From assembly GCA_963674595.2 (NCBI GenBank), contig CAXXFV010000014.1, forward strand, positions 1-64,000: DNA of 64,000 nt. The letters are read 5' to 3'. The position numbers and the translations under genes were made by a program. Shown in pieces: positions 23,003 to 29,272 of this stretch; positions within the stretch are counted from its first letter, which is position 1; every line of letters starts with the position of its first letter. This DNA is from a bacterium (GTDB lineage Bacteria > Zhuqueibacterota > Zhuqueibacteria > Residuimicrobiales > Krinioviventaceae). The notes below the pieces were generated by a model. It was not told the DNA's origin and ran no database searches. It saw nothing but the letters and a program-made list of their open reading frames with translations.

Positions 23003-26000
23003 TCAGTTAGCGCGTCCGCAACAGTTTTTATATTTTTTACCGCTTCCGCAAGGGCAAGGATCGTTTCGTCCGACTTTTTTAGTCTTGACAATAGGAGCTG
23101 TTTTTCGCGGTTGAGTTCCTGCCTGAACCGGCGAAGCTTTACTTTGTTTTGCCCCCATAACCTGTTTAAAAACCTCAACCTGCGAGTGAGTCATATTGTA
23201 TTGTTGCGGTTCAACACGCCTTAATTGCTGCTCTTCTATTTCCCCACCGACATCAAACACTTTAAAGAGGGTACTAACAACATCCCTGTTAATGCTATCA
23301 ATGGTTTTGACAAACATTTTATAGGCTTCACTTTTATATTCAAGCAACGGATCTTTTTGTCCGTAACCTCGTAATCCGATACCTTCACGCAGTTCATCAA
23401 CACCACTCAAATGCTGACGCCAATTTTCATCAATTTTTTCCAGCACATAATAACGTTCATATCGGGTTGCAAGAGCAGAACCTATTTCATTTACCCGGTT
23501 TATATAAAGTTTTTTGGCCCATTCGCTTACCTCATCCAGGACAAGATTTGGGTCCAAGGCCTCATCACTTTCATCTCTGAGACGCGGGGCCTGACGAAAA
23601 ACGAGCCGGCAATCTGTTTCCAGACGATTTGCCATGTCAGGATCTAAAATTTTATCACTGTTCAAAACACTGCTTATAATGTTATAAATCGTTTCGTCAA
23701 TCATCATAAGAACAGAATCTCTAACAATTTCACTGCTTATTCGTTCCTGACGGAACCGTTCAACCCGGTCGGCATATACTTTATATAAATTGAGTCCCCA
23801 GGCTACCATTTGTTCGCGAAAGACAGCATAATCCTCATCTTTAGATCCACTTGGCAGGGCCTTGTCAGGTTTACTCAAAAACATAAAATCAAGCTGCTGG
23901 GAAAATAGTTTCTTTGTCTTTTCATCTGCCTTTGCATCTGTACTTTTGTTAACCAGTGCAATAATCGAAGCTTCTATCAATTCTTCAATTGTTGCATTCG
24001 CCAGCATAATATCGTTATAAACTTGAGAATATTTAGAAAACGTCTCAGAATAGGTCAAGCGGACCTGTTTCATTGTCTGGTTCTTTAAAGAATTTTCTGC
24101 TTCTGCTTCATCAATTGTGATATTAAACGGCTGTCCGAATACTTTTTCAAGGAAATCTTGCTGCTCTTTTATAAGTTGGTTGTTTTCTTGTTCATTAGGA
24201 GATCCCAATTCCTGAAAACAATGGTCAACAATAATATGAGCAAAGTTTATATTTGAAAAATATCCTAAAATCCGGTGCCTTATTTGATTTCCCTGTTCAA
24301 TATTTAAATGATCATTCATCCACTCCAAAACACGTTCACGAATGACCTCCCGTCGAATACTCTTTAATTCATTGCTGCCCAATGAAGGGACATCAAAAAA
24401 TATTCTTTCAATATCCTTTAAAAATTCATCGGTAGTCCAGGTAGCCGGCGAGCCTTTAGCATTCAAATGACGGTCCATTATTCCAGTCAGATAAATCCGG
24501 ATCATCTCTTTTATGTCCAGAGATTCAAATATAATTTTAGCTACAGAGTCAGTGCCATTTTCAACTTTATCAGAATAAACTTTTCTGCCCCAGGAGACAA
24601 TTTTTTCTTCCAAAGCATCAGCATCCGGAAGGTCTGTTTGGTTCATCAACCATTCCGGCCCAACACCTAAAATACGCTCAAATTCAAAAACAATACCTTC
24701 CAAATTCCATTTTGAGGTATCCCGGGAGCCGGCATTATGCAGTTTTATCTTTAATTTAATTAAAACGTCTAAAATATCATCAAGAGAGCAATAACCATAT
24801 ATACGATGCCGTTCCTGCATTTGATGCTGGTCTTTTTCCTGCTCAAGTTTACTTAAAACCCAATCCTGAATTTTTTCTTTAATTTCGCTCTGCTTTAAAG
24901 TTTGTAAATCTTCTAAAGTAAAATCAGGCTCAGCCCCAAAGAACTCTTTTAAATTTTCAATCAGTTCATCAAGTTTCCAATCGGTATGATCGTCCTCTTC
25001 TCCGAAAAATCGTTTTGTTTTTGATTCTACAAAATCTTCGGCCTGTGCGAACCCAAGCAGGTTCTGACGTCGTTTGTAAATAATTTTTCTCTGGTCATTT
25101 AAAACATTGTCATATTCCAGCAGATTTTTACGAATTTCAAAGTTACGTTCTTCAACCTTTTTTTGTGCTCGTTCAATAGACCGGGTAATCAGCGGATGTT
25201 CAATTCTTTCACCTTCTTGCATATCTCCAAGCCGGCTCATAACATTTGTAATACGGTCGGAACCAAACAGTCGCATTAAATCATCTTCTAATGACAAATA
25301 AAAACGTGAAGCACCCGGGTCACCCTGACGTCCGGCACGACCGCGAAGCTGACGGTCAATTCTTCGGGCCTCATGTTTTTCAGAACCTAATATTTGTAAA
25401 CCACCGTGTTTTATCACATCCGGAGTCAGTTTAATATCCGTACCACGACCGGCCATATTTGTAGCAATTGTAATTGAACCCGGCAAACCGGCTTTGGCTA
25501 CAATTTCAGCTTCGCTTTTATGATATTTGGCATTTAACACGGTGTGAAAACGACCGGATTCCAGTTCTTTGGTAACGTCACCTTTTTTCAACCAATTTGC
25601 CACCGGTATACCACGATGCGTAAATAAAGTACTTAGATGCTGAGAAACATCAACGGAAACCGTACCTATTAAAATGGGTAGCCCTTTTTCATGTAATTCC
25701 AATGCCTCATCAATAATAGCATCGTACTTTTCTTTTTTAGTACGATAGATAACATCATTATTGTCCTTACGGATAACAGGTTTGTTCGTTGGAATAACAA
25801 TTACTTCAAGTTCATATGTACTAAAAAACTCCTGCGATTCGGTTTCGGCAGTACCGGTCATACCGGCGAGTTTGTGATAAATTCGGAAAAAATTCTGCAG
25901 GGTAATGGTCGCCAGAGTCTGACTTTCAGACTGAACCTCAACTCCTTCTTTTGCTTCCAAAGCCTCATGTAAACCGTCGCTAAACCGGCGTCCCGGCATT

Positions 26001-29000
26001 AATCGACCGGTAAACTGATCAACAATCATAACGGCTTTGCGTCCGCGTGCCGTACCGGCGCGTCGCATTTCGCCTTCTTCTACTGCTTTAACAACATAAT
26101 CCACGTCGTTTTTATATAATGTATAGGCGCGAAGTAATTGACTTATATTTTGTACACGGTCTTCAACCTGCGAATAATCCTGCCAGAGTTTGTTACGCCG
26201 ACTTTCTAAAATAGCTCTGGGCTTTCTTTCAAAATGAATCCTGAACCAGTGCTCGATTTCTTCAGATGTCATTACAAAATTTTGAGCATGAGCATTGGCC
26301 AAAAGTTCATTCATTTCGCGTTCTTCAAGCATAATCCGTTTTGCACGGAGCTGTGCTTTGTCTTTCGGTAAAAGGGCATCAAGCTCCGAACGTGTGGACA
26401 CCTTTTTACTGGAAAAATGCAAAATATCATCGCGAAACGCTTTTAGTTCTTCATCATAACTGAAAAACGGAAGTCCATCAACCAGATACTGCCTGGCAGA
26501 GCTTAACAAACGTTTGGGAATTTGCTGTTCATCCAGTTCAAAAACAGAATCCGCATCAATATTAATATCATCCAAAAGTTTTACGAGTTGTTCCGTAACC
26601 TGAAAACGTTCATTTGCTGAACTGGTCAAACTTTTTATACCATTATTAGACAGTCCTTTAAATCTCAAATCACTGGAAGATTTCGCAGCCTGTCCGTTGC
26701 TGTCAAAATCTAAATAACGGCGTAAAAATCGTTGTTTCTCCTGGTCTGAAAATTCACTTCTTTTTATAGTTGAGAACAAACTCTTAAATACATTTTGTAA
26801 ACGTTCAACATCTTCAAAACGTCGGGATAAACTTGGTATATTATCATTATTAAAAGATGTTGCCAGATATTCATCCAGTTCGATTCTTAACTGGACTGAA
26901 TTTGCGTTCTCGTCAGCTTTATGGGTTTGCTGCCATTTCAGGATTTTTTCAGCCACACTCTTCAAGTTAAATCCCAAAAGTCTTTCTATTTCAGTATCAG
27001 CCAAACCAAGAATATTACCGTTTTCATCTAAATCAAATATTTGTTCAATTTCATTCGAATAACGTCCAAGGTCTTTATCAAGCAAAAGAACAATATCATT
27101 TACCTGCTGAGCAAAGTCCGACAAGAAATTATAACCCAGCTTTGAAAAGTCGAGCCGGTCTAAAGAGCCAACCTTTTCACGTTTGTAAAACAAAGGTTCC
27201 AGTTTTGATACATCTGTTTGTACATATTGATATATCTGAGAAATCTCTAATTGTAATTTTTCAGCAGCCTGAACACGGGCGGCATAATCAAAAGCAGATT
27301 GATTCAGGGTCCTGTCAAGTATCTGCTTTACTTGCCTATCCTGTTCTTCAACAAGGCTGCGGTCAGGTAAAATATAAATATCCGGATTTCCACCAAGTAA
27401 AGCAATTCTACCTTTTTCAGATATATGTTTTAAAACGGTGCCATTATCTGAAAATTCAAAGTATTCCTGGCGGCGGTCTTCTGTTATACTTTCAGATTGG
27501 GTTGTTTTCTTGTCATCAACAGACGAGCTGCCGGCTGTATCCAGCATGGATGCAATTTTTGAGATATAGGGAACAAGAAAGGGATCGCCCTTGCAAACCA
27601 TTGCAAACAAGGCAAGCTTGCCGCTTTCCGTCAAACCCGTTATAGCGCCTAATTGTTTTTCAACCTGGAAAAAAGTTTGAATAATTTCACGACGACGGTC
27701 CTGTTGCCCACGAGAAATCTGGCCTCCGGCATCAACATCGGCTATATTTTGGATGAGTTTTAATAAATTTTGCAGCTCACCGACAAATTGAGAAAAATCC
27801 TCAGATCCATCACTTTGTAAATATTTAGCACCACTCTCTGTCAGGTTGTTGACCATTCGGTCCATTCGTTTGGAAAAATTAAAATTTTCACGCCAGATTG
27901 AATTTTTATCCGTCCTTTTTTCCTGAACATCCTGAGAGATTTTAGTTTCCAAATTAGCAAAATGCTCAACAAATTTTTCAAGCTTTTCATAATCGTCTTT
28001 ACCCGGGCGTTTAGTAATTTGACAAAGCAGTAATTGCCCTTCAAAGGTAATGCCGTTACATAAACCCGATATGGGGTCAAGAGTAAAATATTGGGCCGGC
28101 TTTTTCTGTTCGCTTAAATCGTACAAGGCCTGATCAAGCTCATCCAGTTTTTGAATTTTTTCTGCAATATCCTGGTCACGTCCGCCTGATAAAAAGATAC
28201 GTCCTTTTTCAGTAATATCTAAAACATGGCTTTTTTCATCAATCGTATAATACAGTTCACCATCAACCTGACCCATGGTTTTATTGATTTCATGCTGCCC
28301 CAGAATTTTTTCAATCAGCTTTTTAACCCAAAACTCTGACGTTTGCAAGTCCAAAAGTTCCTGGTTTTTCGGATCACCACGTTGTGCCCGTAAAAGCATA
28401 AGACCGGCAAGTTCTTCGTCCTTTTCAAGTAAATCCTTACCTTCGCGGACAAATTGTTCCACAAGCTCTTTTTGTTTCGTGTAAAGATTGGAAACAATGG
28501 GTTTAAGTTCATAATAAATATTTCGTGGCGCACCAACAGCACCGGATATGATCAAAGGTGTTCGGGCTTCGTCGATAAGGACACTGTCTACTTCATCAAC
28601 AATTGCATAATGCAAAGGACGCTGAACAACAGACCATACATCTGTTGTCATATTGTCACGAAGATAGTCAAAACCAAACTCATTATTGGTCCCATAGGTA
28701 ATATCAGCCATATAGGCATGTTTTTTTTGTTCAGGGTCCAAATCACCGTAAAGTGCGGCGACTTTTAGGCCCAAAAACTCGTAAATTTTTCCCATCCACT
28801 CACAGTCACGTTGTGCCAAATAGTCATTCACGGTAATAAGGTGAACGCCTTTTCCTTCAAGTGCATTTAAATATAACGGCATTGTAGCGACCAGTGTTTT
28901 TCCTTCACCCGTTGCCATTTCTGCAATTTTTCCCTCATGCAAAACAATACCGCCGATAAGCTGGACATCATAAGGAATCATATTCCATTCAATTTCTTGT

Positions 29001-29272
29001 CCGCGTACCAACCATTTTTTGCCTAAAAGACGACGGCAGGTATCCTTAACAGCCGCAAAAGCCTCAGGTAATATATCGTCAAGCGTTTCGCCCATATTTA
29101 AACGATAGCGAAATTCATGGGTTTTGGCTTTTAATTCATCGTCAGTCAAGGATTTATATTTTTCAGCTATCTGATTAATATCTTCAACGATAGGACGAAT
29201 ACGTTTCAACTCACGTTCTGTGCTTGTCCCACCCATTATTTTGGAAAAAAACTGTTCTACTTTTTCTAACAT
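23003..29272 (-). CDS. secA: Preprotein translocase ATPase SecA, giant form (2089 aa)
   Basis: [69 protein letters not shown] motif [19 protein letters not shown]. Confidence 0.97.

Follow-up and report, generated by a model that had tools for sequence, protein, structure and literature searches.

A giant SecA, expanded in place by predicted tandem repeats of two sub-domains, in one order of candidate division KSB1

SecA is essential and among the best-studied molecular motors, and its architecture is usually very constant. In canonical SecA (Bacillus subtilis, Protein Data Bank (PDB) entries 1tf2 and 1m6n; Escherichia coli, 2fsf; ~800-900 aa), nucleotide-binding domain 1 (NBD1), with the preprotein cross-linking domain (PPXD) within it, is followed by nucleotide-binding domain 2 (NBD2), the helical scaffold domain (HSD), the helical wing domain (HWD), intramolecular regulator of ATPase 1 (IRA1), and a linker with the SEC-C zinc motif. 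Signal peptides bind in a groove flanked by the PPXD on one side and by IRA1/HWD on the other. According to passages of PMC6123708, the PPXD (also preprotein-binding domain, PBD) is mobile, its position being close to the HWD when the clamp is open or wide open and close to NBD2 (IRA2) when it is closed. Described here is a 2089-aa SecA encoded in the first 64,000 nt (the window) of contig CAXXFV010000014.1, assembly GCA_963674595.2, from a KSB1 bacterium of the order Residuimicrobiales. The protein is clearly a SecA, though no SecA studied so far has this size or architecture. Judged from sequence and genome comparisons, it is the housekeeping SecA of this one KSB1 order, expanded in place. 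Its identity, housekeeping role and repeat origin are together held with high confidence.

The gene is on the minus strand, which was not stated in the first-pass annotation, and its frame contains zero stops across 2089 codons. Its GC content (0.36-0.42) is like that of the flanks and the genome. Five Pfam SecA domains scored above their cut-offs: SecA_DEAD (PF07517, 410 bits), P-loop_SecA (PF21090, 228 bits), SecA_SW (PF07516, 190 bits), SEC-C (PF02810) and SecA_PP_bind (PF01043, 60.8 bits compared to a cut-off of 23.5), the last covering only the C-terminal part of the PPXD (aa 1012-1106). The single uninterrupted frame with all SecA motifs that had been proposed at first pass was therefore confirmed. 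The general SecA equivalogs of NCBIfam were also passed, PRK12904 with 968.2 bits (cut-off 814) and TIGR00963 with 896.5 (cut-off 800). The top NCBIfam model was the Bacteroidota-type PRK12901 (1118 positions), which gave 1065.4 bits over five matched stretches, below its cut-off of 1493. All SecA2 models were below cut-off (TIGR03714, 647 compared to 930; TIGR04221, 518 compared to 725; NF012136, 577 compared to 1100; TIGR04397, 775 compared to 1085). The gene, its motor regions and their motifs are as follows, with mean pairwise identities taken over the 44 family members.

23003..29272, minus strand: giant secA, ATG-started open frame, 2089 aa plus stop
28475..29272, minus strand: NBD1, N-terminal part (aa 1-266), from Pfam, the 1tf2 alignment and motifs; identity 0.78
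aa 119-126, in NBD1: Walker A, MATGEGKT, invariant in 44 sequences
aa 225-230, in NBD1: DEVD box, VDEVDS, invariant in 44 sequences
25778..26200, minus strand: canonical C-terminal PPXD part and end of NBD1 (aa 1025-1165), overlapping the SecA_PP_bind match at aa 1012-1106; identity 0.82
25238..25777, minus strand: NBD2/IRA2 (aa 1166-1345), from P-loop_SecA; holds the arginine-finger block
aa 1310-1320, in NBD2: arginine-finger block [11 protein letters not shown], from motif position
24992..25237, minus strand: HSD, long helix (aa 1346-1427), from the 1tf2 alignment and the model; identity 0.83
23243..23467, minus strand: IRA1/two-helix finger (aa 1936-2010), from SecA_SW, matching B. subtilis 707-843; identity 0.79
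aa 1967-1975, in IRA1: two-helix-finger tip, LRGYGQKDP
23006..23242, minus strand: C-terminal linker and SEC-C zinc motif (aa 2011-2089), PF02810, 37.4 bits
aa 2073-2086: SEC-C zinc motif [14 protein letters not shown], four cysteines invariant in 44 sequences

The Walker A motif, the DEVD box, the arginine-finger block, the finger tip and the SEC-C cysteines were invariant across the family. With the ATPase, two-helix-finger and zinc-finger motifs all retained, the SecA motor is predicted to be intact.

Alignment to B. subtilis SecA (1tf2) gave 692 bits in three collinear blocks, with residues 17-266, 1042-1486 and 1931-2088 of the giant corresponding to 14-250, 292-709 and 707-843, respectively. 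The HSD/HWD side aligned to B. subtilis residues 654-709 and the two-helix-finger side to 707-843. The portions unmatched in canonical SecA were ~aa 267-1041 in the PPXD and ~aa 1487-1930 in the HWD, close to the two places (aa ~360-1025 and ~1405-1935) in which the extra length had been located earlier. Aligned with L012, a SecA of 1065 aa from the same class, the giant was collinear over aa 1-383, 1025-1437 and 1840-2087, leaving aa ~384-1024 and ~1438-1840 as the clade-specific parts.

Profile self-comparison of the PPXD insert revealed recurring units of ~55-70 aa. Nine beta-hairpin+helix modules (U1 plus those of the array) were found compared to one in relatives, and U1 to U9 were all in register with the single 'Y.hDEK...v.LTE.G' hairpin of mid-size relatives. 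The E values listed below refer to this hairpin; for U9, the support came mainly from its link to U7 and from the structure.

28253..28474, minus strand: helical N-terminal PPXD extension (aa 267-340), helices in the model; common to the ~1060-aa SecAs of the phylum
26201..28123, minus strand: clade-specific PPXD array (aa 384-1024), from profile self-comparison and the model
aa 341-365: hairpin module U1, E = 6e-19
aa 395-419: U2, E = 0.015
aa 463-490: U3, E = 1e-5
aa 534-560: U4, E = 1.4e-3
aa 604-628: U5, E = 1e-9
aa 695-718: U6, E = 3e-5
aa 745-768: U7, E = 0.021
aa 853-884: U8, E = 1.5e-3
aa 910-932: U9, E = 0.48

An AlphaFold2 model of aa 225-1110, built from the 44-row alignment (predicted local distance difference test (pLDDT) 81.9, predicted template modelling score (pTM) 0.64), contained exactly nine hairpin+helix elements with helical linkers between them and a ~50-residue helix leading back into the canonical PPXD. 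A Foldseek search of this arm against the PDB gave no match at E < 0.1, and an ESM Atlas query with the array gave no usable match. A profile of the array (19 sequences, 634 positions) was searched against 1.84 billion representative proteins, and the seven proteins found at E <= 0.001 were all members of this family or fragments of them. At the level of sequence profiles, then, the PPXD array is unique to the order.

In the HWD, six tandem units of ~66-96 aa were identified compared to one in relatives. The units were linked to each other by hhalign (H1 to H3, 9e-14; H1 to H2, 2e-7; H2 to H4, 9e-9; H2 to H6, 2e-7; H2 to H5, 5e-4); H1 is the unit that aligned to the B. subtilis HWD, and H3 gave a SecA_SW match of 23.1 bits, below the cut-off. 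The model of aa 1340-2010 was all-helical (pLDDT 87.3, pTM 0.81) and matched only SecA chains in the PDB, partially, with a template modelling (TM) score of ~0.2. The two short loop insertions noted at first pass were both present; they were absent from all seven comparison SecAs aligned and conserved among the giants.

23468..24991, minus strand: six tandem HWD units (aa 1428-1935), from hhalign links and the model
aa 1428-1517: HWD unit H1
aa 1518-1607: H2
aa 1608-1689: H3
aa 1690-1774: H4
aa 1775-1869: H5
aa 1870-1935: H6
26036..26077, minus strand: clade-specific basic loop [14 protein letters not shown] (aa 1066-1079), inside the conserved PPXD hairpin; positions kept in the family consensus
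25547-25603, minus strand: clade-specific loop [19 protein letters not shown] (aa 1224-1242), in NBD2; W1227, K1230, G1231, D1232 and V1233 invariant in 44 sequences

The extra residues are thus predicted, from the profiles and the models, to be ordered tandem repeats of two existing SecA sub-domains and not linker. The total gain on the stem of the order was ~1040 residues, made up of the PPXD module (from one to nine), the HWD (from one to six) and the two loops. A complex prediction of the PPXD array (aa 341-935) with H2-H5 (aa 1518-1869) gave no placement (score 0.00), which speaks neither for nor against contact between them.

To determine the spread of the giant form, proteins of 1148-3656 aa were searched. 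Among the best 120 of 8000 scored candidates, at least 43 further 90%-identity clusters of 2049-2111 aa were found, with 53-62% identity over 100% of the length, together with two partial sequences; the scores then dropped sharply to SecAs of ~1150 aa. Two members are labelled 'candidate division KSB1 bacterium' at NCBI, and the public database names are generic ('SEC-C domain-containing protein', 'hypothetical protein', 'preprotein translocase subunit SecA'). In genomes, the giant type was recognised by a SecA_DEAD match split by ~2.5 kb. An intact orthologue of 2060-2166 aa was present in 33 of 40 relatives from five families of the same order. The gene was in pieces in six others, cut at a contig end in G014, frameshifted in G009 and, judged from coordinates, split across or truncated at contigs in G007, G028, G032 and G036, and it was not found in the remaining one (G016, 78% complete). 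No intact shorter form was present among the 40. A second SecA_DEAD gene was absent from 37 of the 40, being present only in G009, G012 and G016. The giant was the sole SecA in the closed genome G008 (one contig, 100% complete) and in the 3-contig genome G015, which was rechecked with the 924-aa SecA considered below as query; otherwise only SEC-C-motif proteins matched. Outside the order, a sample of 151 phylum genomes yielded no listed frame above 1183 aa, the complete frames being 1014-1183 aa; this listing leaves out nine matches and includes two unpublished genomes (G115 and G149), both with an ordinary SecA. In this sample, the length survey proposed at first pass confined the giants to the order. 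One SecY was found in this genome and in each of five others checked, with frames of 444-487 aa, an ordinary length; across these six genomes there was no SecY co-expansion.

As a separate observation, the frameshift in G009, a 5-contig relative, falls at ~aa 796-814 in the PPXD array (L136, G009:C1:76000-83200) and may be a sequencing error or a real split. The same genome also carries a small SecA-like paralogue.

The immediate neighbours of the gene are both part of a locus conserved across the phylum:

29397..29915, minus strand: nusB, upstream neighbour
22398..22868, minus strand: smg (DUF494), downstream neighbour

On the same strand, recQ, a CT398-like gene, recJ and nusB precede secA, and smg, topA, xerC/D and hprK follow it. 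The order CT398-recJ-nusB-secA-smg-topA-xerCD-hprK, or most of it, was present in all three giant loci examined and around the mid-size secA in five of six loci, two of them from other classes; the sixth (L036) retained nusB-secA only. Since the same locus surrounds both forms, the giant is the positional orthologue of the ordinary SecA of the phylum, and the first-pass argument from a core recJ-nusB-secA-smg locus gained support. Given an intact motor in the sole SecA beside a single ordinary SecY, the giant is predicted to carry out general protein export. The first-pass guess that it is the housekeeping copy agrees with its being the sole SecA in most relatives, the closed genome included.

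Two side observations concern this locus. The gene order from the CT398-like zinc-ribbon gene to hprK (window 17753-35548; loci L032-L040) spans several classes, an unusually stable synteny. The topA frame (window 20199-22388, minus strand; 729 aa, TTG start) matched the Pfam topoisomerase core only from profile position 35, had no Toprim match at E <= 0.001 and showed 21-46% tblastn identity to relatives; its start or N-terminal domain may be unusual or mis-set.

A quick tree (LG+G4, 960 columns) was calculated from 42 chosen rows, comprising 8 of the 44 giants, 16 mid-size SecAs, 7 small paralogues, the 924-aa SecA and 10 others. The giants were monophyletic (support 100) on a long stem of 0.6 and were placed weakly (86) beside a Rhodothermales-type group, not within the clade of the phylum. 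In the approximately unbiased (AU) test, a single clade of the giants and the SecAs of the phylum was not rejected (p 0.553; that tree was 2.17 log-likelihood units better). The AU test and the shared synteny are most simply read as vertical descent accompanied by a burst of change; on this reading, the giant would be a vertically inherited, in-place orthologue of the ~1014-1183-aa SecA of the phylum. The sequence comparisons place the expansion of the PPXD module and the HWD, and the gain of the two loops, on the stem of the order.

Conservation differed between the motor and the arrays, with mean pairwise identities over the 44 sequences of 0.78-0.83 and 0.27-0.52, respectively. Unit lengths were near-fixed (for example, 89-90 aa for H1 and 66 aa for H6) within total lengths of 2049-2111 aa, and the paired tryptophans of the HWD units were invariant (W1432, W1471, W1522, W1561, W1612, W1651, W1825 and W1918). 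The aligned sequences indicate that the repeat number is fixed across the order and has been unchanged since the order arose. For the 40 strain differences listed, of 109, 29 of 39 changed codons were synonymous and 30 of the 40 differences were at third codon positions; none of the strain differences was an indel within the frame. The arms are mildly acidic, with the composition of ordinary soluble protein, and are not obviously hydrophobic.

Other SecA-like proteins were also encountered. Seven phylum genomes have an extra SecA-like gene of 792-839 aa: L006 (G016), L007 (G009), L008 (G012), L025 (G055), L026 (G052), L027 (G094) and L028 (G107). These paralogues form their own clade in the tree and lack the SEC-C tail, ending instead in a hydrophobic stretch and then lysines, which resembles a C-terminal membrane anchor; they may relate to the 'secondary SecA_DEAD proteins' outlined in part of PMC4452313. 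Over-long metagenomic SecAs included P0090 (1705 aa), P0113 (1306 aa), P0110 (1580 aa), P0116 (1350 aa) and P0070 (1422 aa). P0110 has a partial extra NBD1 at its start and an acidic low-complexity insert in the wing region, P0116 has a longer N-terminus and wing region, and P0070 looks like a frameshifted fusion with another gene.

Both amplified elements border the preprotein groove, and both expansions and the loops arose on the same branch; the arrays are therefore read as arms extending both jaws. The two arrays would form two rigid, folded arms that lengthen the jaws on the cytosolic face and enlarge the surface capturing and holding unfolded preproteins before and during threading. They would act as a built-in holdase in a lineage without SecB, no SecB family match being found in this genome, and ATP-driven translocation through the single ordinary SecY would continue as in other SecAs. 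This whole explanation, a housekeeping SecA with repeat expansion and substrate-holding arms, is preferred with somewhat better than even confidence, and the substrate-holding role by itself is more tentative, falling short of an even chance. Several observations weigh against it. The arrays are far less conserved than the motor, the tree does not place the giants within the clade of the phylum, and the assembly holds a second SecA. SecB is also not expected in relatives with an ordinary SecA, and contact of the arms with substrate is only inferred. Trigger factor was found in 111 of 113 phylum genomes at least 90% complete, the giant order included, so there is no obvious chaperone loss needing compensation, and the idea of such a loss was rejected. 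Finally, a PPXD of ~800 aa would be heavy to swing, and the clamp cycle of canonical SecA may have to differ here. The first-pass suggestion of a link to very large secreted proteins found no support; this genome has 11 frames of at least 2000 aa, the largest being 3386 aa.

There is practically no probability that the gene is an artefact, whether from chimeric assembly, from an intein or from decay into a pseudogene. The frameshifted copy in G009 could be taken to favour it; against it are the lack of stops, the 33 intact orthologues, and the inserts themselves, which gave no match to the Hint, intein or LAGLIDADG families in a Pfam scan at E up to 10; a match to intein/Hint profiles had been named at first pass as grounds for refutation. 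DNA-level tandem repeats were also lacking from the gene apart from four trivial short ones. The gene was found in public runs from nine studies, with no RNA dataset among the listed runs holding it, and four runs were compared. In run X2, positions 22300-30000 are all covered by one contig (10,683 nt), which differs by 10 substitutions and a 1-bp indel at 22995, outside the frame. Such coverage speaks against a chimera; this near-identical record might itself be the source of the present DNA, run X1 (no differences) being the likelier source. Run X8, which belongs to a different study, covers the gene in tiles that differ by 105 substitutions and contain no indel within the frame. Very improbable, too, is that the giant is an accessory SecA2-like specialist with another SecA as the housekeeping motor. 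A second, normal-sized SecA, for which the first-pass annotation had advised a check, was indeed found by a genome-wide SecA_DEAD search (924 aa from ATG; C23:838415-841189, minus strand). It has the best SecA_DEAD score in the genome (440 bits), and contig C23 as a whole correlates with C14 in tetranucleotide usage (r = 0.988), both of which would suit the accessory reading. The whole of C23 was rejected as a contaminant, its rate of full-length paralogues being like that of a control contig (63/670 and 46/599 frames, respectively). The 924-aa gene, however, lies in the last ~218 kb of C23 (~732,000-950,646), where GC is 0.46-0.59, having risen abruptly at ~732 kb from the 0.36-0.42 of the first 725 kb. 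Beside it lies a second guaB that shares 57% identity with the copy on C16 and 56-58% with those of relatives, and the same GC-rich segment includes the second of two copies of a seven-gene cluster, its match to the other (C1:68-74 kb) being 30-58%. Among the genomic relatives of the 924-aa SecA, the nearest are metagenome-assembled genomes of Acidobacteriota, Nitrospirota and Desulfobacterota (51-60% identity); none of the 80 loci kept for it is labelled KSB1, and in the tree it branches outside all Fibrobacterota-Chlorobiota-Bacteroidota (FCB)-type SecAs. No gene of its type was found in any of the 40 relatives, the extra SecAs of three of them being of the different, ~800-aa type. The 924-aa SecA is thus probably not native. 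The low scores of the giant to the four SecA2 models and the lack of a second SecY also count against the accessory reading. The segment looks like a misjoined foreign piece, which fits the contamination estimate of 5.06%, or alternatively a very large acquired island; in either case, the status of the giant is unchanged.

With the giant accepted as the housekeeping SecA, three other readings of its arms can be set beside substrate holding. The arms may be docking or scaffolding platforms for a partner, such as the ribosome, the membrane, a chaperone, a second SecA protomer or a lineage-specific factor, or may position the motor. This is the strongest of the three, if still rather unlikely: the arms are predicted by the models to be rigid and ordered, their ordinary, mildly acidic composition suits it, and the two clade-specific loops, which have invariant residues and arose simultaneously, could be contact points. 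No candidate partner has emerged so far, however; the surroundings of the gene match those in relatives with an ordinary SecA, the expansion thus having brought no new neighbour, and SecY is of ordinary length. A largely neutral origin, in which a one-time repeat expansion at two permissive surface sites was kept by packing between copies and brought no new activity, is improbable. The arrays do evolve faster than the core, and P0090 and P0113 hold unrelated helical repeats at the same PPXD site, neither being among the array-profile matches; from such cases, the site appears to tolerate insertions. Yet the number of copies and the lengths of the units have stayed frozen over five families, certain aromatic and glycine residues never vary, and most strain differences are synonymous. 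In addition, 33 of 40 genomes retain ~3 kb of added coding sequence in an essential gene, and an intact shorter form is lacking. Similarly unlikely is a reading in which the PPXD arm, with its nine modules, and the HWD arm, with its six units, together build an extended, partly closed antechamber above the clamp, an intramolecular holdase or guide that would keep long preproteins unfolded and feed them to the two-helix finger. As a PPXD of ~800 residues could not swing canonically, the clamp cycle would then be remodelled, and the universal bacterial export motor would exist in this order in a version with a mechanism of its own.

Whichever function the arms may have, a whole order relies on a doubled version of this motor, which has grown only in the two elements that make up its preprotein-binding groove and clamp. 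The gene also illustrates cleanly how sub-domains can be amplified within an essential gene. Models of SecA rest on the rigid-body swing of a small PPXD; a PPXD of ~800 residues with a wing of ~500 residues is a natural test of which movements are needed, and raises the question of how so bulky a grip still works. No ~2000-aa SecA and no PPXD or HWD repeat array was described in the literature searched, which was mostly without subscription journals and supplements, so that absence from print is not proven; an earlier description, which had been named at first pass as another ground for refutation, was thus not encountered there.

Among known systems, the secondary SecA_DEAD proteins, as presented in part of PMC4452313, and the ~800-aa paralogues share SecA_DEAD motor domains with the giant. 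Unlike the giant, these paralogues are extra copies of 792-839 aa, without SEC-C and in a separate clade. P0090 and P0113 resemble it in that tandem repeats are inserted at the same PPXD position, directly behind the first hairpin. Their repeats, however, are all-helical by eye, unrelated in sequence and not among the seven array-profile matches, and the two proteins lie elsewhere in the tree; no HWD array was seen in them, the single-sequence hhalign unit count being too weak to use. The accessory SecA2 proteins (SecA2/SecY2 of Gram-positives and the mycobacterial type) are alike in being diverged SecAs; the giant differs in falling below all four SecA2 models, in having no second SecY, in being the sole SecA in most genomes and in keeping the SEC-C tail. 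Canonical SecA has the same domain order and the same catalytic and finger motifs, to which the giant adds ~1200 residues, with nine PPXD hairpins compared to one, six HWD units compared to one, and two extra loops; among the matches, no solved SecA chain exceeds 997 aa (2ipc). A further group comprises the FCB/Bacteroidota-type SecAs (PRK12901) and those of other KSB1 orders, which have the helical PPXD extension, the first hairpin and the 'PDLYVLPD' motif in common with the giant, the ~1014-1183-aa KSB1 proteins also occupying the same genomic locus. Relative to these, the giant adds aa ~384-1024, aa ~1438-1840 and the two loops, scores below the PRK12901 cut-off and sits on a stem of 0.6.

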